A program made the position numbers and the translations under genes. The notes below the pieces were generated by a model. That model was given only the letters and a program-made list of their open reading frames with translations, was not told the DNA's origin and did not search any database. From a bacterium (lineage in GTDB: Bacteria > Patescibacteriota > Minisyncoccia > Phycocordibacterales > UBA5272), in NCBI GenBank assembly GCA_043717115.1, contig JAYSXQ010000040.1:1-36126 (forward strand): a stretch of DNA of 36,126 bases. Direction: 5' to 3'. Each line of letters opens with the position of its first letter. Position 1 is the first letter of the stretch. Below, in pieces: positions 11,171 to 18,812 of this stretch.

Positions 11171-12043
11171 ATGAAAACAAGAGTGCTGCTATTTTATAAA
11201 TACGTGACTGTTGAAAACCCAAGTGTTGTTATGGAGCGGGAGAGATGCGTATGTAATGTGCTAGGACTAAAAGGGCGTATTATAGTTGCAAATGAAGGTA
11301 TAAACGGAACAGTGGAGGGTAGTCTGGAGGAAACAGAAAAATATATAGCGCACCTTAGAAGTGACAAGCGTTTTCGTGACATGTACATAAAAGAGTCAAT
11401 TGGCGATGGTAAAGCCTTTCCGAGATTGTCTATAAAAGTAAAACCAGAAATAGTTTCTACAAAGTTTTCGTCTGATATAGACCCACGTAAAAAAACTGGC
11501 AAATATTTACAGCCACATGATTTAAAAAGAATGTACCAGAACAATGATGATTTTATAGTGATAGATATGAGAAATGAGTTCGAGATTGCCAGTGGGTATT
11601 TTAAAAACACCGTGAATCCAGGACTGACTACTTCACGTGATCTTGCAAAAACAGATGTAATAGAAAAACTTAAAATACATCGTGATAAAAAAGTCGTCAC
11701 TGTATGTACCGGAGGAGTTAGATGTGAAAAAATGTCGGCTTTTTTAATTGATCAGGGATTTACAAATGTTCACCAGCTGCACAATGGTATGCATGGGTAT
11801 ATGGAAAAGTACCCAGGTGAGGACTTTTTGGGAACGCTGTATACATTTGATGATCGCAAGGTTATGGATTTTGGTGGTGATCGTACTGTTGTAGGCAGAT
11901 GCGGTACCTGCGGTACCGCATCTGAAAAATACGAAAATTGTGCTAACATGAAGTGTCACGATAATTTTATAACATGTAGTGCATGTATGGAAAAGTATGG
12001 GGGTGTGGCATACTGTAGTGATGTCTGCAAAGAGGGCTATTAG
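11171..12043 (+). CDS. trhO: Rhodanese-domain protein of the UPF0176/TrhO (YceA) family, a putative tRNA U34 hydroxylase
   Basis: LLFYKYVTVENP...GRIIVANEGINGTVEG N-terminal domain. Rhodanese active-site loop CTGGVRCEK. Cys-rich C-terminus. The track start at 11057 overlaps priA; the ATG at 11171 (MKTRVLLFYKY) fits the family N-terminus. Confidence 0.85.
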   Translation: MKTRVLLFYKYVTVENPSVVMERERCVCNVLGLKGRIIVANEGINGTVEGSLEETEKYIAHLRSDKRFRDMYIKESIGDGKAFPRLSIKVKPEIVSTKFSSDIDPRKKTGKYLQPHDLKRMYQNNDDFIVIDMRNEFEIASGYFKNTVNPGLTTSRDLAKTDVIEKLKIHRDKKVVTVCTGGVRCEKMSAFLIDQGFTNVHQLHNGMHGYMEKYPGEDFLGTLYTFDDRKVMDFGGDRTVVGRCGTCGTASEKYENCANMKCHDNFITCSACMEKYGGVAYCSDVCKEGY

Positions 12044-12050
12044 CTAATTT

Positions 12051-12068
12051 GATCCCGCTATGGTCCAC
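12051..12068 (+). repeat. 18-bp exact copy of the 3' end of tRNA-Ala (T-arm/acceptor segment)
   Basis: GATCCCGCTATGGTCCAC at 12051-12068 is identical to 13143-13160 inside the tRNA gene. Same orientation, 1092 bp apart. Confidence 0.9.
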
Positions 12069-12072
12069 AAAT

Positions 12073-12099
12073 AAAATAAAAATATTTGAATAGAAAAAT
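12073..12099 (+). repeat. 27-bp direct repeat, copy 1, immediately upstream of the VanY-like start codon
   Basis: AAAATAAAAATATTTGAATAGAAAAAT at 12073-12099 is identical to 12988-13014. Confidence 0.9.
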
Positions 12100-13008
12100 A
12101 TGCAATTAAAGTATTTAGAAAATAGAAAAAATAAAGTATTTTTTACAGTAATTATCCTACTGTTAATTCTATGCTCTTATTTTATTTACATAAGTACAGA
12201 ATACAAAAAACAAAATCAGCAATTTGTGATAGACAGAAATGATCTAAAAATAAAACTAGATGAACTAAATAAAAAGTATACAGAAATAGTAAATCAATTA
12301 GAAATAAGTCAAGCTGATAAAACAATGCTGACTCAGAGCTTTGATCAAGTTGGTAGTCAGTATAACAGTCTAATGCAAGAATACACAGTCAAATCTGTAG
12401 AGGTAGACAAGTTGCAAAAAACTGTACAGATAGATGATGAGTTGCTAAAAAAATATTCAAAATATTATTTTCTAAATGAAAACTACGTACCTGCATCTAC
12501 TACTTTAGTAGATATTAATTTAACTTTAAATAATAAAAATATACTAATTTTGAGCGAAGTAAAATCTAAACTTGAAAATATGATCAATGCTGCAAAAACA
12601 CAAAGTGTAAATATCATAGTGTATTCTGGGTACAGGTCATTCAAAGAGCAACTCTCACTCAAAAGTGCTTATACTCAAAAGTTCGGGCTATCAAAATCAA
12701 ATCAGTTTTCCGCAGATCAGGGATATAGCGAGCATCAACTCGGGACTGCGGTTGATGTTAGTGATGGAAAGACAGGACTATCTACAGGTTTTGAAAAAAC
12801 TGCAAGTTTTATATGGCTACAAGATAATGCTTACAAATACGGGTTTATACTATCATACCCCAAAAACAATTCTTATTATCAATATGAGCCATGGCACTAT
12901 AGATACGTAGGTGTAGAGCTGGCAACGTATCTCAAAACAAACGATTTAAATTTTTACGATTTAGATCAAAAAATAATAGATGCGTACAAAATAAAAATAT
13001 TTGAATAG
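12100..13008 (+). CDS. VanY-like D-alanyl-D-alanine carboxypeptidase (peptidase M15B), membrane-anchored
   Basis: N-terminal TM helix and coiled-coil-like linker. M15 zinc/catalytic motifs SGYRSFKEQ, SEHQLGTAVD and EPWHYRYVG. Confidence 0.88.
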   Translation: MQLKYLENRKNKVFFTVIILLLILCSYFIYISTEYKKQNQQFVIDRNDLKIKLDELNKKYTEIVNQLEISQADKTMLTQSFDQVGSQYNSLMQEYTVKSVEVDKLQKTVQIDDELLKKYSKYYFLNENYVPASTTLVDINLTLNNKNILILSEVKSKLENMINAAKTQSVNIIVYSGYRSFKEQLSLKSAYTQKFGLSKSNQFSADQGYSEHQLGTAVDVSDGKTGLSTGFEKTASFIWLQDNAYKYGFILSYPKNNSYYQYEPWHYRYVGVELATYLKTNDLNFYDLDQKIIDAYKIKIFE

Positions 13009-13014
13009 AAAAAT
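12988..13014 (+). repeat. 27-bp direct repeat, copy 2, covering the last 6 codons and stop of the VanY-like gene
   Basis: Identical to 12073-12099. Encodes ...KIKIFE-stop. Confidence 0.9.
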
Positions 13015-13086: not shown

Positions 13087-13162
13087 GGGCCATTAGCTCA
13101 TTTGGTAGAGCGCATCCATGGCATGGATGAGGTGAGCGGTTCGATCCCGCTATGGTCCACCA
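13087..13162 (+). tRNA. tRNA-Ala (anticodon GGC), CCA encoded
   Basis: Manual cloverleaf: acceptor GGGCCAT/ATGGTCC with the G3:U70 alanine identity pair, D stem GCTC/GAGC, anticodon stem CATCC/GGATG, loop AUGGCAU, T stem AGCGG/CCGCT with TTCGATC loop, discriminator A plus CCA. Length 76 nt. Confidence 0.93.
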
Positions 13163-13235: not shown

Positions 13236-13757
13236 ATGAAAATATGGTTATTTCTTTTGGCAACACTTATGTTGCAGGAACTCTTTTCTTCCGCGGCAGT
13301 ATTGACACCTCTGTATGCTGCACATTACAGTACCTGGCTAATACATCTCACCTTCATTATCGCCACAATACTTGATATCTCCATAGGATACTATGTCGGT
13401 AGTTATATCAAGAGGAATGCTTCATCTAATCGCTTTGTTACCTTTATACAGAAAAAGGCTGCACGGTATCAGTTTCTTTCTAGACGGACTCCACGAAGAC
13501 GTCTAGCATTATTTGTATTCGGTCCTCCGCTATTCCCTATTACTGCATTCTTTGCACCACTTATCGGCTTCTCATTCTATGAAAGCTTCTCTATCCTTCT
13601 CCTCGGGGAAATCACGTTCTGGTATGGTCCCGAATGGCTCTTAATACTTGGAATGCACACGTTTTTAGGTAGTCATCTATGGATGATAAGTATCATACTG
13701 GTACTTATCTTTTGGGTATATCCTCTATTTAAGGACAGTTCTTTTTTTCGGAAGTAA
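13236..13757 (+). CDS. Small polytopic membrane protein of unknown family
   Basis: About 173 aa with 4-5 hydrophobic helices. The track ORF start at 13152 lies inside the tRNA, so I use the ATG at 13236 (MKIWLFLLATLML). Spot G+C is 27/60 (line 13441). Confidence 0.65.
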   Translation: MKIWLFLLATLMLQELFSSAAVLTPLYAAHYSTWLIHLTFIIATILDISIGYYVGSYIKRNASSNRFVTFIQKKAARYQFLSRRTPRRRLALFVFGPPLFPITAFFAPLIGFSFYESFSILLLGEITFWYGPEWLLILGMHTFLGSHLWMISIILVLIFWVYPLFKDSSFFRK

Positions 13758-14882
13758 TGGGTAGAATGTTTGTGCCCAGAAGCCAGATGGAAGTTCTTCA
13801 TTATCCAAACCATAGGTATCGGGCCATTTTTCTTTTGGGAAGTAGTAAGTGCTAAAGATTTTATCTATCCATGGAAAATGAATGGCAAAATTTTTATCGA
13901 TGGCATCTTTTTGTGAGGCGTGATGCCAATGATGGAAACGCGGTTGAACAATATATGGTTCCAACCATTTTATAGCCGGACGAAAATTACAATGTGCCCA
14001 AGTTGCATGTATGGTAACCCAAAATAGATATGCCACTATGATGCCATGGGGAAATATAAACATCATCGGGACCAACATGAATCCTCGTACTACTACGTCT
14101 TCTACAATGTGTGCACGTGAGCCTGCTATCCAATCAAGAGCCTTCGAAGAATGGTGAATGGCATGGAATTTCCACATAAATGGCACTGTATGAAATATTC
14201 GATGTACAAAATATTGACTGAGATCCGCTACAAAAATAGCAAGCAAGATTTGCACAAGCCAAGGTAGACTTCCTATCGCCGCCAGTACACTTGGTATCCC
14301 TAGATATGTTGAAAGCTGGGTTGCAGGCAGTAGGATAAGAAAAGAGGTAATTTGGATTGGTAAGTGTGTCGCTAAGAAGTAGCCAATATCTAGCAGCCAT
14401 TCTTTTCTAAAAACTTTCTGCTTTGGATATGCAGGCCAAAGAACTTCTATTGGAGAAAAAATTAGTGTCATAAGCAATATATCAAGCAAGAACCAATCTA
14501 GTCCAATAGATGGACCATTCTGAAGGTGTTCGTTGATTGGAACACTTGACCCACCGAGTATACTTGCTGCGAGAGTGAAGATCATTCCAGTGAGAGCTAG
14601 AACTTTCTTCTTGCGTAACATTGCGGAGATGACCCCAAACACTATTGAACCCAACATGACTATCTGGATCAATGGTCGAATGATGTCCATGTCATAGTAT
14701 TGTCGTAACTCAGGAGAAGTAAGAATTTGTGGAAAGTGGAGACATATCACCGCACCGAATGCGAGTATTCCGAAGAATGCTGATAATATTCCACTCCACC
14801 AACCTGATCCAAAATTAGTTGAATCATCATCTCCAAATACTTCATGAATTTTTTCTTCGAGCATATGAAAAAAGTATATCAT
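13725..14882 (-). CDS. Fatty acid hydroxylase / sterol desaturase family membrane protein (di-iron His-box enzyme)
   Basis: His boxes HRIFH, HAIHHSS and HHWHH in the C-terminal half. Multi-TM N-terminal half. Spot G+C is 28/60 (line 14101). The 3' end overlaps the convergent upstream gene by 33 bp. An alternative start lies at 14864. Confidence 0.8.
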   Translation of the reverse strand: MIYFFHMLEEKIHEVFGDDDSTNFGSGWWSGILSAFFGILAFGAVICLHFPQILTSPELRQYYDMDIIRPLIQIVMLGSIVFGVISAMLRKKKVLALTGMIFTLAASILGGSSVPINEHLQNGPSIGLDWFLLDILLMTLIFSPIEVLWPAYPKQKVFRKEWLLDIGYFLATHLPIQITSFLILLPATQLSTYLGIPSVLAAIGSLPWLVQILLAIFVADLSQYFVHRIFHTVPFMWKFHAIHHSSKALDWIAGSRAHIVEDVVVRGFMLVPMMFIFPHGIIVAYLFWVTIHATWAHCNFRPAIKWLEPYIVQPRFHHWHHASQKDAIDKNFAIHFPWIDKIFSTYYFPKEKWPDTYGLDNEELPSGFWAQTFYPLLPKKRTVLK

Positions 14883-14957
14883 GTATTAAAAAAATATGAA
14901 ATTAAGTACAGGATAAAATTGAATAGTTATTTATTCTTTAAATGAACACACTTAAAC

Positions 14958-14982
14958 AAAAAAACCACTCACAAGGAGTGGT
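14958..14982 (-). terminator. Rho-independent terminator of the desaturase gene
   Basis: Minus strand reads CCACTC-CTTGT-GAGTGG followed by TTTTTTT, 8 nt after the TAA at 14990-14992. Confidence 0.7.
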
Positions 14983-14989
14983 CTTGACT

Positions 14990-15847
14990 TTAGAAGCCAA
15001 GATTTTTGAGCGGCACATCCTCCGGGATTCTCATCCCGGTCTCGGTTGCCTTCACCAGCCCAATAGACTTCATCACCTTTACAGTCAGGAATCCGAAGTC
15101 GTATTCGGAATCGTTATGACTGAGGCGTAGCATGCCAGCGGCATGGTGGTGATTATTCTGCCAACATGCACTGAAGGTTGCGGTCACAGGAAGCCATTCC
15201 CCGACGTTTTCGGCCTTGTCATCATCGCCGGGATAGCGTCGATGTCCGAACCCAGGTGTGTGCGTCCAGTAGTTTTGGATCATGTTGACCCAGAGTGCGA
15301 AGACACGTATACCGATCCACATCACCAGTGCAAATGTTAAGCTACGCGCGACCAAGTACAAGAGCCAGAAGCTAAAGATCTGTGCCGGAATGGCATAGAA
15401 CATGCTATTAGCAACTCGGAATGTCCGAGATTGCAGAATCTTGTCGTTTGCCACGTTCTCTTTGCAAGGATATGGAAATAGGCACAGATAAAGTGTCTTC
15501 CAGAACCCGTCGCTTGCAAGCTTGTTCGGATCACCTTCGTGATCCGAGTATCGATGATGTAGTCGATGGCGGTTTACCCACTCGAGTCCATTTACGTAAA
15601 TCGCAAACGTATTGTTTACGACCGTGACCAGCTTGGCGAACCACTCCTTGAACTCGAGCGAACGATGGGCAATCCCTAGGTGCAGGACATCTGCCATATA
15701 AAGTCCGCCCATGAGCCAGATGAAGATGAAGTATGCGGCTCCGATAAGGAGCCCATTCCAAAGCCCCAACTCTGACGGCGCAAAAATTCCGCAGGCAAAG
15801 AAATAGGCAAGGATAATCGAGTAGCCGTACATGTTGTACGATTTCAT
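14990..15847 (-). CDS. Acyl-CoA/acyl-lipid Delta9-type fatty acid desaturase
   Basis: Three His boxes in canonical order: HLGIAH(RS), HRLHHRYSDHEGDP and WQNNHHH. Four hydrophobic spans. GGAGGT SD at 15857-15862. Spot G+C is 28/60 and 32/60 (lines 15541 and 15601). Confidence 0.85.
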   Translation of the reverse strand: MKSYNMYGYSIILAYFFACGIFAPSELGLWNGLLIGAAYFIFIWLMGGLYMADVLHLGIAHRSLEFKEWFAKLVTVVNNTFAIYVNGLEWVNRHRLHHRYSDHEGDPNKLASDGFWKTLYLCLFPYPCKENVANDKILQSRTFRVANSMFYAIPAQIFSFWLLYLVARSLTFALVMWIGIRVFALWVNMIQNYWTHTPGFGHRRYPGDDDKAENVGEWLPVTATFSACWQNNHHHAAGMLRLSHNDSEYDFGFLTVKVMKSIGLVKATETGMRIPEDVPLKNLGF

Positions 15848-16054: not shown

Positions 16055-16741
16055 ATGAAAAACTCACAAAAAAGTTTTGCAAATATTGTTTTACTAGCGT
16101 TAGTAGTTATTCTCGCTGGAGCTATTGGATATTTCTTGTCAGTGACAATAAAGAATCCTCCAGCAGCCGTACCAGTAACACCTTTTTTATCAACAGATAA
16201 AAAGAGTATAAGTACTGATAGTAAAATCTTGTTAGTTATTGACAATGATACAATTTTTAATTGGTTTAAAACCAAAAGCCAGTTGTGTGACGGATATAAC
16301 TTAACCAGTAGTCCTGATCGTAAGATGTTTTGCGAAAACAAAACATCTTTTAAGAGCCAAACTAGATTTACTTCAATCGTTATTTCTCCCGATAAAATGA
16401 AAATTGGTTTTACTATAGAAAGTGATACATTATCTCCTGATAAAGTCGTCGGTGTTTTTTCACTCTCTACTAATTCAGTTAACTTGCTGGGTAGTTACTA
16501 TCTTGGAAACGAGTTTATTAGTTTTTCTCCAAATGGTATAAATTTTGTTTACAAAGGTGATTGCTTTGAGGGAATGTGTGGACTATATGTAAAAAATTCG
16601 GAAACACTTACCGATAAAACTAGTCTAAGTGATTCAGAGTTTGCTGATGCCAGAACCAGAACTGCTACTTTTGTAAAATGGTTATCGGATAATGAGATAG
16701 AGTATAAACTCGGCACAGAATTAAAACGAATATCATTTTAA
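16055..16741 (+). CDS. Membrane-anchored hypothetical protein (228 aa), possibly with PD40/TolB-like beta-strand repeats
   Basis: N-terminal TM anchor (IVLLALVVILAGAIGYFL). SPDK.../SPNG... repeat-like segments. A TACTAT -10-like box at 16043-16048 puts the TSS at the ATG. Function not recognised. Confidence 0.65.
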   Translation: MKNSQKSFANIVLLALVVILAGAIGYFLSVTIKNPPAAVPVTPFLSTDKKSISTDSKILLVIDNDTIFNWFKTKSQLCDGYNLTSSPDRKMFCENKTSFKSQTRFTSIVISPDKMKIGFTIESDTLSPDKVVGVFSLSTNSVNLLGSYYLGNEFISFSPNGINFVYKGDCFEGMCGLYVKNSETLTDKTSLSDSEFADARTRTATFVKWLSDNEIEYKLGTELKRISF

Positions 16742-16760
16742 TTCTAAATTTTAATCTTTA

Positions 16761-16779
16761 AAAATAAAACACACCCAAT
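16761..16779 (+). repeat. 19-nt direct repeat, copy 1 (left arm of the terminator hairpin)
   Basis: AAAATAAAACACACCCAAT at 16761-16779 is identical to 18227-18245. Confidence 0.9.
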
Positions 16780-16791
16780 GAAGGTGTGTTT
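16767..16791 (+). terminator. Hairpin terminator after the 16055-16741 gene
   Basis: AAACACACC-CAATGAA-GGTGTGTTT followed by an AT-rich tail. Confidence 0.6.
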
Positions 16792-16980
16792 ATATTTAAC
16801 TTTTGACTATTTTATGTTATTATATACATGTAGAAGGTGGGTTAAAAAATACCAATCAAAATGCTTATATTTTCAATATAGAACGAGTCGAGTGCGGAGT
16901 TAATGCTGTAGAATTGGTAAAGTTTGCGAAGGTTTATAAAAAAGATATTAAACACTTTATTAAAATAGTAACATAAATTT

Positions 16981-17673
16981 ATGTTTTGGAATAAAAAAAT
17001 TAAAATCGAGGAAACTGATTTAGATTCAGCTATGATCGAGCTTGGGCGAGAAATCGAAAGAGGTCTTTTACTTTTAGGTGCGGTTGTTCAGCAACATTGG
17101 ACAACAGAAGAAGAGGAAAATGATTATAATAAAGCCGTATCAGTCACTATGAATATGATTCTAAATGATAAAACATTGACTGATATGGATAGACTGGAAA
17201 AAGCAAAATATATACTCGATTTGTCAAAGGTGTATAGAAAATTTATAGACGCTTCGTCATCTAAATATGGGGATTTTATTCTTTCCAGACTAAATCAGTT
17301 TGAGCAGATGTTAGAACCACTACCAAAAATAAAGTCGCATGAAAAAGTTGAGGAGTGGATAAAGCTTACTAGTGAGTTGTGTAAAATACGTGCTGACGAA
17401 ATTAATGCTATTGAAGCCCGTATAGAACTCGACAATTTTATACCAAAGCTTGTTATTAGAGATGAGGGAAATTCAGAACAGAATATGACGGAAGAAGAAG
17501 GAAATCAATTTGCACATCTAGTCGCCACTTACGGCTCTAAACGACAGCTTGCTTATGAAGCCGAAAAGAAAATTGAGCCGATGAGATCAAATCTAGCTGA
17601 AAGTATGTTTGGAAAACTTAACGAGTATATGAAAGATGGTAGTTACTCCAGGTTACTAATAATGAAACCTTAA
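16981..17673 (+). CDS. Hypothetical acidic, predicted all-helical protein (230 aa); first gene of the cassette
   Basis: Long ORF in native-like AT-rich codon usage. Its stop is 10 nt before the next start. No motif I recognise: no nucleotidyltransferase GS..D.D, no HTH signature. Confidence 0.7.
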   Translation: MFWNKKIKIEETDLDSAMIELGREIERGLLLLGAVVQQHWTTEEEENDYNKAVSVTMNMILNDKTLTDMDRLEKAKYILDLSKVYRKFIDASSSKYGDFILSRLNQFEQMLEPLPKIKSHEKVEEWIKLTSELCKIRADEINAIEARIELDNFIPKLVIRDEGNSEQNMTEEEGNQFAHLVATYGSKRQLAYEAEKKIEPMRSNLAESMFGKLNEYMKDGSYSRLLIMKP

Positions 17674-17683
17674 ATTAAGGAGA

Positions 17684-18142
17684 ATGAATCAACTAATTAA
17701 AAAAGAGAGAATACCTATTCAGTCGATTTTATTTTCTTTAACTGAATGTTTAGATGCGTTAGTTGCGTTAGATGAGGTGAATAGACTTCATACACAAATT
17801 CCTATAATGAATCTTCTGGAAAGAGAAAGTTTAAATTTTCGTCCAGAAATCATGGTTACTTTAGTTAGTGTGACAAGAGATTGTTTTTGTATTCGCATAG
17901 CAAATCTTTTTGATAATCGTAAAGATACTCACTCATTAAAAAAATATTTTCATGGTGATACTGTTGATAAACTAGAAAAACATCCTATAACGGTTGCGGC
18001 CATTAAGGCACGACACAACAACATTGCGCACATGGGGAAAGCGTATACAAAATGGCCTGAGATAGATGCTATTCTCGTCGCGACTGATTTGAGAGATTTA
18101 TTGGAGAGTATCAGAATTGGTATTTCGATAAATCGTCAGTAG
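17684..18142 (+). CDS. HEPN-like (AbiU2/Abi-type) putative RNase toxin, 152 aa
   Basis: Predicted helical. R-x5-H motif R110-HNNIA-H116 (nt 18011-18031) with a polar residue after the Arg and AH at the end, as in many HEPN families. It sits in the C-terminal third, as expected. The assignment rests on motif and size only. Confidence 0.45.
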   Translation: MNQLIKKERIPIQSILFSLTECLDALVALDEVNRLHTQIPIMNLLERESLNFRPEIMVTLVSVTRDCFCIRIANLFDNRKDTHSLKKYFHGDTVDKLEKHPITVAAIKARHNNIAHMGKAYTKWPEIDAILVATDLRDLLESIRIGISINRQ

Positions 18143-18226
18143 GAGCAATCTTTGACGTTTTATAATATCTCCTAGCGCTACGCGCGTTCGTAGTAGATTC
18201 GAGCAAATGCTAGAATAACACCACCA

Positions 18227-18245
18227 AAAATAAAACACACCCAAT
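18227..18245 (+). repeat. 19-nt direct repeat, copy 2
   Basis: Identical to 16761-16779. Confidence 0.9.
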
Positions 18246-18260
18246 AGGGTGTGTTTTATT
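18229..18260. terminator. Bidirectional terminator with a 14-bp perfect stem
   Basis: AATAAAACACACCC-AATA-GGGTGTGTTTTATT between convergent genes ending at 18142 and 18297. Confidence 0.75.
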
Positions 18261-18296
18261 AAATGCTATAGTTTTATATTAGCACTAAGTTTGAAA

Positions 18297-18812
18297 CTAC
18301 TTCATAATGTAATGTCTCACGTCTACTGCGCCGTGATTTAAAAATATGTCTTCAGTGCTAGCAGGAGTACCACGTGATATTATCAAAATATCGCCACGTC
18401 TCACATGGTCCTCGTACATGTGAACGTCAGCTTCGTCTACTCCTAGATTAATTAATCCTCCTATCATACCACCAGCCACTGCACCACCAGCTGCACCTGC
18501 TACTGCAGTTGCTGCTGTAGCACCTATGCCTAATGCAGCTGCTAATGGTCCTGCGACTAGCACAGTACCAAAACCAGGTAAAACTACATTAGCGACTACG
18601 AGTCCTGCTAGACCTCCTATTATTGCTCCTGCTGTAGCTCCTGTTGCTGCTGCTCCGCCTACCTTTTCGCCAGTTTGGCCGTCTTTTATATTACCTTTTT
18701 CATTGGTATATACATAAGATAGATCAGTTTCGTTCACTCCAAACTCTTTTAATTCGTTAAGAGCGCTTTCTGCTGCTGTGTGAGTAGTAAATACTCCTAT
18801 GGTTGTTATCAT
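18297..18812 (-). CDS. YflT-like general stress domain protein with a central glycine-zipper membrane segment
   Basis: N-terminus MITTIGVFTTHTAAESALNELKEFGVNETDLSYVY resembles the general stress protein 17M/YflT domain. Central region is a GxxxG/Ala-rich run (GGAAATGATAGAIIGGLAGLVV...). Confidence 0.6.
   Translation of the reverse strand: MITTIGVFTTHTAAESALNELKEFGVNETDLSYVYTNEKGNIKDGQTGEKVGGAAATGATAGAIIGGLAGLVVANVVLPGFGTVLVAGPLAAALGIGATAATAVAGAAGGAVAGGMIGGLINLGVDEADVHMYEDHVRRGDILIISRGTPASTEDIFLNHGAVDVRHYIMK

Follow-up and report, generated by a model that had tools for sequence, protein, structure and literature searches.

The interval at 16791-18207 of the window (the whole 36,126-nt stretch of DNA analysed) is probably a decayed and immobilised copy of a cargo cassette of Patescibacteria, carrying a stand-alone Abi-type HEPN gene, here termed P2, with the preceding gene, P1, as independent cargo. 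A preliminary description had presented the two genes as a HEPN module with an undescribed partner. P1 and P2 are not a new HEPN-plus-partner system, and the message of the window is one of correction, in that it holds a remnant of a mosaic cassette.

Anatomy of the interval

Both open reading frames were found on the + strand as previously described, P1 at 16981-17673 (230 aa) and P2 at 17684-18142 (152 aa), separated by a gap of 10 nt that carries AAGGAG. The neighbouring gene downstream, which is YflT-like, is convergent with P2. Two copies of a palindrome flank the pair. The left copy, hairpin 1 (16760-16797, + strand), is the terminator of the upstream gene of 228 aa and folds at -12.7 kcal/mol (z -4.2), with a terminator-like site called on the - strand too. 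The right copy, hairpin 2 (18226-18262, strand-neutral), is a perfect 14-bp palindrome that folds at -19.8 kcal/mol on the + strand and -21.6 kcal/mol on the - strand (z about -6), and, lying between P2 and the YflT-like gene, it can serve as a terminator in both directions.

The left arms of the two hairpins, previously given as identical over 19 nt, share one base more, with the 20-nt sequence AAAAATAAAACACACCCAAT perfect at 16760-16779 and 18226-18245. As had been noted, the right arms are almost the same, and across the repeat unit of approximately 33 nt the copies differ in one 1-nt indel in the loop and in a few substitutions. When the window was simulated 200 times with a first-order Markov model, exact direct repeats reached at most 19 nt overall and at most 17 nt at distances within 3 kb, hence the shared arm exceeds every exact repeat in the simulations. 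The 13-nt core of the repeat has no other mismatch-free copy in the window.

Insertion of a module into a pre-existing terminator, as proposed from these arms, fits the anatomy. The homology of both flanks to the ends of a cassette family (described below) supports a probable insertion of foreign DNA, but no empty site was found: in twelve genomes that encode a homolog of the upstream 228-aa protein, none of the other neighbours is shared with the window, and the only further contigs with exactly this YflT-like protein match the window at 100% identity throughout the cassette. Several other origins were considered and rejected. Neither IntI nor attI accompanies the interval, as an integron cassette would require, and a serine integrase acting at the terminator palindrome would need attP/attB half-sites identical over 20 nt. 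Repeats of the tRNA-Ala 3' end were also discarded as island boundaries, their only other copy being a tRNA pseudogene (approximately 12034-12070) upstream of VanY.

P2, a HEPN-like protein

P2 contains the sequence R110-HNNIA-H116 (RHNNIAH), with a polar residue after the Arg, in agreement with the HEPN Rx4-6H motif originally proposed, and the motif is conserved: H116 is present in all of approximately 36 homologs and R110 in all but one. Residues R110, N113, I114 and H116 are invariant across 27 P2 homologs, as is D66 in helix 2, and residue 111 of the family is either H or N. In the divergent set H116 is again invariant and R110 is retained in 12 of 13 members, the homolog without the Arg being P0136.

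The sole Pfam family matched by most P2 members was HEPN_AbiU2 (PF18734), the AbiU2 family of HEPN domains to which AbiU of Lactococcus lactis belongs (Anantharaman et al. 2013; PMC3710099). Weak matches were obtained from 24 of the 27 homologs (best E 5.8e-5), those from different members being collinear over profile positions 17-161. The window P2 scored 16.6 bits (E 0.0058), and the divergent members and the consensus 13.7-17.6 bits; no P2 match reached the PF18734 gathering threshold of 26.8 bits, with scores of about 14-18 bits among the matches listed. By its sequence, P2 is hence a distant AbiU2 relative and not a member of PF18734 by the Pfam criterion.

The AF2 model of P2 (pLDDT 88.4) comprises helices at residues 11-41, 54-74, 101-114 and 127-151, with an insert at 75-100; the motif at 110-116 closes helix 3 (101-114) and runs into the loop before the last helix. 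Compared at the level of secondary structure, this topology agrees with the HEPN description in PMC3710099, and together with the conserved motif and the weak Pfam matches it bears out the earlier assignment of the second protein as HEPN-like. Foldseek searches of the model against the PDB returned generic helical bundles (best E 0.33), with the HEPN entries 3jrt, 7ae6 and 1jog at E 1.7-3.6, and no significant match was found in BFVD. The family profiles of P2 and P1 each retrieved nothing under E 0.29 from PDB sequences. PADLOC (PADLOC-DB 2.0, E up to 1) matched neither protein to any defence-system protein model, and NCBIfam and PHROGs gave nothing, or noise, for both. When the word-indexed protein search with P2 was run again from a profile, it brought in the close family only, with no bridge to annotated HEPN proteins. 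No relatives were found when viral contigs were scanned with the family profiles of P1 and P2, and nothing meaningful was retrieved by tblastn of P2 against plasmids or of P1 against phages. The P2 family was confined to Patescibacteria metagenomes. Both genes are under purifying selection, with dN/dS of 0.09-0.21 for P2 and 0.12-0.29 for P1.

Judged from its sequence and model, P2 is probably a small HEPN-type RNase. It would represent a minimal stand-alone member of the HEPN superfamily, distantly AbiU2-like, and most likely a metal-independent RNase that acts through R110 and H116, probably as a dimer. Single-gene Abi HEPN proteins of lactococci are thought to stay latent until triggered and then to cleave RNA. 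P2 may likewise remain latent until triggered, whereupon RNA cleavage would lead to growth arrest or abortive infection, and we infer a role in defence or addiction for this predicted effector.

P1, a helical protein and probable cargo

The product of P1 had been described as strongly acidic; it is acidic (pI 5.1, net charge -9), albeit only moderately so. Its model (pLDDT 86.7) forms an all-helical bundle of long helices, for which Foldseek retrieved only generic helical bundles from the PDB, and no family or fold match was obtained from Pfam, PADLOC, NCBIfam, PHROGs, the PDB profile search or Foldseek against the PDB. As noted previously, P1 carries no MNT motif, and no nucleotidyltransferase domain was detected in it or in any other neighbour upstream of P2. 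A role as Sel1/TPR partner of AbiU2 was considered and rejected, the modelled helices being approximately 40 residues long and not repeat hairpins. P1 has 20 close homologs and 86 remote relatives, the latter mostly of 340-400 aa with a C-terminal transmembrane hairpin. It is one of several interchangeable genes in the cassettes, and would be cargo in its own right, the soluble form of a helical family whose members are mostly anchored in the membrane, rather than the antitoxin of P2.

A cassette family in other Patescibacteria

The flanks of the interval are homologous to the ends of a family of XRE-HTH-led cassettes in other Patescibacteria. A gene for an XRE-type HTH protein, missed in the first reading, is the recurrent upstream companion of both P1 and P2 in most, though not all, contexts, and several of these contexts are defence islands containing AbiEii, RelB, MmeI and Panacea. 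In an intact cassette, this small regulator gene would appear to head an operon of variable genes that ends in a conserved 3' stem-loop, with long inverted repeats on either side. The repeats of the intact copies measure 99-428 nt with 94-100% identity, and the 3' stem-loops fold at -25 to -31 kcal/mol. Features of the cassette ends are the HTH promoter, the 3' stem-loop CAATCCCCGCCGTTTT...AAAACGGCGGGGATTG and the sub-palindrome AAAACCAAAAAATTTCCTTGCATTT.

The cassettes of relatives have tRNA genes close by on their upstream side, and a recombinase gene is bracketed by inverted repeats of its own (134-159 nt). A tRNA gene and the gene of a large serine recombinase both adjoin the cassette at loci L002 and L007, whilst L037 has a recombinase and L012 a tRNA. 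Loci L007 and L008 carry the segment in opposite orientations, an inversion that could be real or an assembly artefact. The Abi-like cargo observed in the slot comprised an AbiU2-like HEPN protein, AbiEii and an Abi_alpha-like protein. Odd open reading frames over the inverted repeats were considered as tmRNA and rejected, as Rfam searches of the window and eight loci gave tRNAs only, so that these frames correspond to no known RNA.

Tentatively, these relatives might constitute an undescribed small mobile or invertible module of Patescibacteria that immediately follows a tRNA gene, and in which the gene of a large serine recombinase and the XRE-led cargo operon lie within separate pairs of near-perfect inverted repeats of approximately 100-430 nt. 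Abi-like effectors and membrane proteins would be shuffled through the cargo slot, and the recombinase would invert or exchange the cargo segment. If so, the locus would be a phase-variable or cassette-swapping defence locus for CPR bacteria, and the window would hold a fossil copy whose HEPN gene was retained by the host.

The probable cassette remnant in the window

Positions 16791-16827 (+ strand) show 83% identity over 36 nt to the region just before the HTH start in L002 and L012, and include a sigma-70-like site, TTAACT-16-TATTAT with TG, at 16796-16823; this segment is the putative retained promoter, or 5' region, of the cassette's XRE-HTH gene. The gene itself persists as a pseudogene (16828-16976, + strand), in which the homologous ATG (16828) is followed at once by TAG (16831), a small insertion is present, and the loss of approximately 87 nt has removed the first helices. 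By blastn, 16791-16862 matched the promoter and start of the HTH gene, and 16863-16967 was 83-84% identical to its 3' part (both in L002/L012). By tblastn, the 57-aa open reading frame in this place aligned over its residues 9-54 with the 72-aa HTH_3 protein of L001/L012 (residues 27-72, 57-61% identity).

On the right, a remnant of the conserved 3' end of the cassette extends from 18143 to 18207 (+ strand), and shows 81-91% identity to the stretch that immediately follows the last gene, which is AbiEii in L007 and P2 in L013 and L002. Its first part (18143-18174) is a decayed copy of the post-stop stem-loop, without significant structure (z +0.33), and the rest (18175-18207) is a piece of the right inverted repeat, of which 33 nt are kept. 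The window copy has no recombinase homolog, no long inverted repeats and no adjacent tRNA gene, so that its assignment to a mobile family rests on the homology of approximately 70 nt of non-coding left flank, approximately 105 nt of HTH pseudogene and approximately 65 nt of right flank. Its nearest tRNA gene, for Ala (13087-13162), is 3.6 kb away, and the 3' end of this gene is not repeated near the cassette. Because the tRNA gene, recombinase and att-type repeats expected of such an element are missing here, and are present in part in the relatives, the window copy is regarded as a remnant and not as an element. The survivors would be the putative promoter, the dead HTH gene, P1, P2 and some 65 nt of the 3' end, with a copy of the host terminator palindrome on each side. 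With the HTH repressor dead, P1 and P2 would be transcribed from the retained promoter without that control, ending at hairpin 2.

Alternative interpretations of the two genes

The proposal that P1 is a dedicated partner, antitoxin or sensor of P2 was not supported by comparison with other genomes. Homologs of P2 with 65-90% identity are found behind at least seven unrelated upstream genes, encoding P1, a 172-aa TM protein, a 260-aa protein, a 266-aa TM protein, a 145-aa pilin-like TM protein (at a locus without HTH), a 397-aa TM protein and a 113-aa Zn-ribbon TM protein. P1 homologs in turn precede P2, a 222-aa protein with AbiEii, a 275-aa protein, a Y1 transposase, UvrD or a 188-aa protein, five of these architectures holding P1 without P2. 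Apart from the window, the two adjoin in no more than one related lineage (L010/L011); this adjacency accounts for two of approximately nine distinct P2 architectures and two of seven P1 architectures, both from one lineage (P1 80% identical). Neither the partner that characterises HEPN-MNT systems, in the case of P2, nor the conserved pairing of type II toxin-antitoxin systems, in the case of P1 and P2, was therefore observed. It is hence unlikely that they form a two-component HEPN toxin-antitoxin or Abi module in which an acidic P1 neutralises or gates a basic RNase (pI 8.5 for P2), even though the short gap with its strong ribosome-binding site ahead of P2 and the opposite charges suit one. 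In L010/L011 a truncated P2 of 50 aa lies beside an intact P1, the decay order expected of antitoxin and toxin, and partner swapping is known in toxin-antitoxin networks, as the available part of PMC10440598 describes. However, several of the upstream genes encode membrane or secreted proteins whose N-terminal anchors would prevent them from neutralising a cytoplasmic RNase, and L004 has P2 with neither P1 nor HTH. Some functional coupling of P1 and P2 may exist, since their adjacency recurs in L010/L011.

It is similarly improbable that the HEPN likeness of P2 is superficial and that the protein is no nuclease, serving instead as a helical accessory factor, for instance a recombination directionality factor or regulator at the 3' stem-loop and inverted repeat. 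P2 is in every case the last gene of its cassette, directly before these two features, and its lack of significant structural match to HEPN, the sub-threshold Pfam scores and the missing Arg of P0136 are consistent with such a role. Against it, AbiEii replaces P2 in cassettes with the same ends, including P1 cassettes, and therefore P2 is not needed by the element; moreover, P2 is kept under purifying selection where recombinase and repeats are absent (the window and L004), and its invariant R/H/D pattern and helix topology agree with HEPN in particular. XRE-type antitoxins are common, and the layout with HTH first and P2 last is the commonest (L001, L012, L013, L031 and, as a pseudogene, the window), which would suit a split addiction pair of 5' regulator or antitoxin and 3' toxin stabilising the cargo between them, the window copy being a disarmed remnant. 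We consider this very unlikely, as the same HTH (94% identical between L007 and L013) heads a cassette without P2 in L007, P2 occurs without HTH in the available sequence of L004 and L030, and in the window the HTH is dead whilst P2 is intact and conserved. The reading of P2 as a stand-alone HEPN gene on a decayed cassette is hence preferred.

Relation to known systems

P2 shares with AbiU2 an R-x5-H motif that closes helix 3 and whose Arg is followed by a polar residue, the insert between helices 2 and 3, the acidic residue in helix 2 and contexts that are mobile and defence-linked. It differs in that all matches fall under the Pfam cut-off, in its length of only approximately 150 aa relative to a 193-position profile, in its restriction to Patescibacteria metagenomes and in the absence of the Sel1-repeat or R-M neighbours listed for AbiU2 in Table 1 of PMC3710099. 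P2 also recalls HEPN-MNT (type VII) and other HEPN toxin-antitoxin pairs, being small, HEPN-like and encoded on mobile DNA within a tightly coupled operon, yet it has neither an MNT nucleotidyltransferase nor any conserved partner among its upstream families.

The intact relatives are of more interest than the window, given their nested inverted repeats, serine recombinase, tRNA adjacency and variable Abi-like cargo. Patescibacteria have tiny genomes with few recognised defence systems, and CPR bacteria mostly lack CRISPR. A conserved minimal HEPN family on recombinase-linked cassettes would enlarge the known immune and mobile gene pool of these organisms.

As far as the available part of the report on Prochlorococcus integrative elements allows comparison (bioRxiv 10.1101/2020.12.28.424599), the relatives resemble such tRNA-proximal cargo islands of streamlined genomes in being small elements beside tRNA genes, with an adjacent recombinase in two lineages, and resemble variable defence hotspots and cargo islands in having conserved ends around a variable, partly defence-like slot. 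On the same basis, they differ in that their recombinase is a large serine recombinase and that recombinase gene and cargo operon both lie in long near-perfect inverted repeats, whilst the window copy has lost all mobility parts. The G, H and C segments of Gin, Hin and Cin offer another parallel, as the inverted-repeat-bounded segment of the relatives adjoins a serine recombinase gene and is found in opposite orientations in L007 and L008 (a possible assembly artefact). In contrast to those systems, the repeats measure 100-430 nt rather than approximately 26-34 bp, the recombinase is of the large type (Resolvase, Recombinase and Zn-ribbon), and the segment holds its own promoter and a whole operon.

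Coding capacity and flanking hairpins of the gene pair

The two-gene, two-hairpin layout of the preliminary description was confirmed in the sequence, with open reading frames of 230 aa (P1, 16981-17673, + strand) and 152 aa (P2, 17684-18142, + strand) separated by a 10-nt spacer containing AAGGAG. The left hairpin arm, previously described as shared over 19 nt, proved to be a perfect 20-nt direct repeat, AAAAATAAAACACACCCAAT, each copy of which (16760-16779 and 18226-18245) forms the left arm of one hairpin. Exact direct repeats reached no more than 19 nt across 200 first-order Markov simulations of the window, and no further mismatch-free copy of the 13-nt repeat core was found elsewhere in the window. 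Hairpin 1 (16760-16797) had a folding energy of -12.7 kcal/mol; hairpin 2 (18226-18262) is a perfect 14-bp palindrome of about -20 to -22 kcal/mol on both strands, and its placement between P2 and a convergent YflT-like gene (18297-18812, - strand) would enable it to terminate both. P1, described as strongly acidic, is indeed acidic, if mildly so (pI 5.1, net charge -9), and P2 is slightly basic (pI 8.5). Both are under purifying selection (dN/dS 0.09-0.29), indicating that both are functional genes.

P2 is a probable distant relative of the HEPN_AbiU2 family

Approximately 36 proteins, all of metagenomic origin, make up the tight family to which P2 belongs, the few named records being Patescibacteria. 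Residues R110, N113, I114 and H116 were invariant in the first 27 homologs; in a set extending down to 44% identity H116 remained invariant, as did R65, D66 and R71, with R110 missing from one sequence only. Pfam HEPN_AbiU2 was matched by 24 of the 27 homologs (best E 5.8e-5) and was the sole family matched by most, the runner-up being matched by three. These matches were collinear across members (profile positions 17-74, 40-160 and 109-161), and the scores listed, 14-18 bits, all fell under the curated cut-off of 26.8 bits, such that P2 is a distant relative of HEPN_AbiU2 rather than a member by the Pfam rule.

The AlphaFold2 model of P2 was confident (pLDDT 88.4, pTM 0.83), with predicted helices at residues 11-41, 54-74, 101-114 and 127-151, an insert of two short helices following the second, and the motif placed at the end of helix 101-114, running on into the next loop. 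Compared at the level of secondary structure with the HEPN description of Anantharaman et al. (PMC3710099), this helix layout was of the HEPN type. A significant fold match was not obtained: Foldseek searches of the PDB returned generic helical bundles (best E 0.33), with the HEPN entries 3jrt, 7ae6 and 1jog at E > 1 only, and searches of BFVD returned no significant match. The conserved R110/H116 motif, the predominant if sub-threshold Pfam match and the model topology uphold the HEPN-like assignment first proposed, and we regard membership of HEPN as probable.

P1 and P2 occur with varied neighbours

No match to P1 was found in Pfam, NCBIfam, PADLOC or PHROGs, nor any PDB-sequence or fold match; its model (pLDDT 86.7) predicts very long helices in a bundle. 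A full HMMER scan retrieved 86 relatives, most of 340-400 aa, in which a P1-like domain precedes a transmembrane hairpin at the C-terminus, a feature absent from P1. One such relative adjoins a weak small-terminase match.

Synteny was compared across P2 homologs at least 65% identical to that of the window. P2 follows P1 in the window and in loci L010/L011, where P2 is shortened to 50 aa. Elsewhere it follows a 172-aa protein with an N-terminal anchor (L001-L003), a 260-aa protein (L012), a 266-aa protein with a C-terminal transmembrane hairpin (L013, L014 and L029), a 145-aa pilin-like protein at loci without an HTH gene (L004-L006), a 397-aa transmembrane protein (L031) or a 113-aa Zn-ribbon transmembrane protein (L030); several of these neighbours are probably extracytoplasmic. 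P1, in turn, precedes P2 in the window and L010, a 222-aa transmembrane protein and then AbiEii in L007, a 275-aa protein with a weak Abi_alpha match in L037 (a remnant in L036), a Y1 transposase in L036, a UvrD-like helicase in L035, and a 188-aa protein on the contig of P0032, in an island that also encodes RelB, MmeI and Panacea.

The preliminary description took P1 and P2 for a dedicated pair, which was not borne out: since a tight P2 family follows seven structurally unrelated upstream genes, and P1 is followed by varied genes, P1 is not plausibly a dedicated antitoxin or partner of P2, and the two appear from gene order to assort independently. Among the loci compared, they adjoin only in the window and L010/L011. 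A HEPN-MNT module was rejected as the identity of P1-P2, as was a conserved type II pair, and P1-P2 was not among the systems listed by PADLOC. Most likely, P2 would act as a stand-alone Abi-type HEPN RNase through R110/H116, a predicted mode of action likened to that of the single-protein lactococcal Abi HEPN families. It is closest to AbiU2 but falls under the Pfam membership threshold. We class it as a new and minimal HEPN-superfamily member, restricted to Patescibacteria, whose copy in the window sits on a decayed mobile cassette.

Two small membrane-protein families, both missing from the window, also recur near P1: one of 220/222 aa (80% identical), 3' of P1 in L007 (6718-7386) and 5' of it in L037 (5326-5988), and one of 79/80 aa (67% identical), upstream of P1 in L010 (6741-6983) and L036 (5757-5996). 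Each occurs in two architectures, approximately as frequent an association with P1 as that of P2.

Intact relatives of the cassette

In L002 (2476-6950), two repeat-bounded units come after a tRNA-Ser gene: a large serine recombinase gene between 134-nt inverted repeats (99% identical) and an operon, HTH-235aa-172aa-P2, between 201-nt inverted repeats (94% identical). L007 (3419-9372) has the same layout after a tRNA-Met gene, with the cargo HTH-P1-222aa-AbiEii and fully identical repeats enclosing the recombinase gene (159 nt) and the operon (428 nt), whilst in L013 (1-1996) repeats of at least 99 nt surround HTH-266aa-P2. Repeats of intact cassettes are GC-rich, share a conserved sub-palindrome (AAAACCAAAAAATTTCCTTGCATTT / AAATGGAAAGGAAATTTTTTGGTTTT) and carry spurious ORF calls; Rfam searches over them identified no known RNA. 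The 3' end of tRNA-Ser recurs as a direct repeat approximately 150-175 nt downstream of the tRNA in L010 (5484-5673; 16 nt, TCCTTCCGTCTCCGCA) and L012 (5504-5671; 21 nt, TTCGAATCTCACCCTCTCCGC); these copies look like att-type scars left where earlier elements integrated at the cassette site.

L008 (1942-8896) corresponds to L007 (5263-9372) with the repeat-bounded cargo inverted relative to the 319aa/PheS/PheT flank. The two derive from two samples of one study and are joined to the flank via the 428-nt repeat, L008 ending at the other repeat copy; the difference may reflect true inversion or the path an assembler took through this perfect repeat. The intact cassette family is a less ordinary object than the pair in the window, and a full-text literature search retrieved no description of it, which is not in itself proof of novelty. 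Unannotated proteins with HEPN-like motifs and no Pfam match adjoin the cassettes of L014 (1276-1734, - strand; 152 aa, RRRLAH) and L010 (5706-6431, - strand; 241 aa, RNKKIEH).

The window carries a decayed cassette

A small XRE-type HTH gene heads the operon upstream of P1 or P2 in most, though not all, contexts. In the window it persists as a pseudogene, a 57-aa ORF (16803-16976, + strand) that aligns to the L001/L012 HTH protein (72 aa) over residues 27-72 of the latter. Positions 16791-16862 match the HTH promoter and first codons, 16863-16967 match the 3' part of the gene at 83-84% identity, approximately 87 nt are deleted between these stretches, and the homologous ATG (16828) is directly followed by TAG.

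At the other end, the 32 nt directly 3' of the P2 stop are 81-91% identical to the DNA that follows the terminal gene in other cassettes, be it P2 or AbiEii. Intact copies of this stretch form a 15-16-bp stem-loop of -25 to -31 kcal/mol (L013, 1654-1701; L007, 8802-8850; L002, 6462-6507), composed of CAATCCCCGCCGTTTT, a loop of approximately 13 nt with TATAAT, and AAAACGGCGGGGATTG, and present whatever the last gene is. Lacking a U-tract, it may serve recombination or RNA stability instead of termination. The window copy (18143-18174) is decayed (z +0.33), and the 33 nt that follow correspond to part of an inverted repeat of L002. Neither a recombinase homolog nor long inverted repeats were found in the window; the nearest tRNA lies 3.6 kb from the cassette, and its 3' end is unrepeated near it. 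L004 and L010 are similarly stripped.

The cassette-family fragment (16791-18207) has a copy of a terminator palindrome on each side; this palindrome lies outside the conserved ends of the family and was found in none of the relatives. We infer that one bidirectional terminator originally separated the upstream 228-aa gene from the YflT-like gene, and was doubled on capture of the fragment, which could have proceeded by illegitimate or homology-facilitated recombination at this cruciform-prone palindrome. Capture by a serine integrase is unlikely, because the two left arms match at all 20 nt. An empty site with a single terminator was not found among genomes with a homolog of the 228-aa gene or the exact YflT-like protein. 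With the HTH repressor dead, P1-P2 would probably be transcribed from a retained promoter-like site (16796-16823), and transcripts would probably end at hairpin 2.

Other features of the neighbourhood

The 228-aa protein (16055-16741) has an N-terminal anchor and weak pilin-like matches. Its homologs (L015-L026, 58-75% identical) are scattered over MAGs labelled as many different Patescibacteria lineages, including Saccharibacteria, Paceibacterota, Peregrinibacteria, Jacksonbacteria and Nomurabacteria, with no neighbours in common, which suggests that this gene is itself horizontally mobile. Perfect 27-nt direct repeats (12073-12099 and 12988-13014) flank VanY (12100-13008), which makes it a second gene-sized unit between long direct repeats in the window and gives this neighbourhood the look of a recombination hotspot. 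Upstream of VanY, a tRNA-Ala pseudogene (approximately 12034-12070), retaining 18 nt of the 5' end and 20 nt of the 3' end around a 39-nt internal deletion, overlaps the end of a rhodanese-like ORF; an intact tRNA-Ala (13087-13162) lies downstream. Between this tRNA and the cassette, fatty-acid hydroxylase and desaturase-like genes (13725-15847, - strand), unusual in a reduced genome, form a patch with a G+C content of 0.44-0.47, compared to about 0.30-0.37 nearby, which may be foreign DNA.
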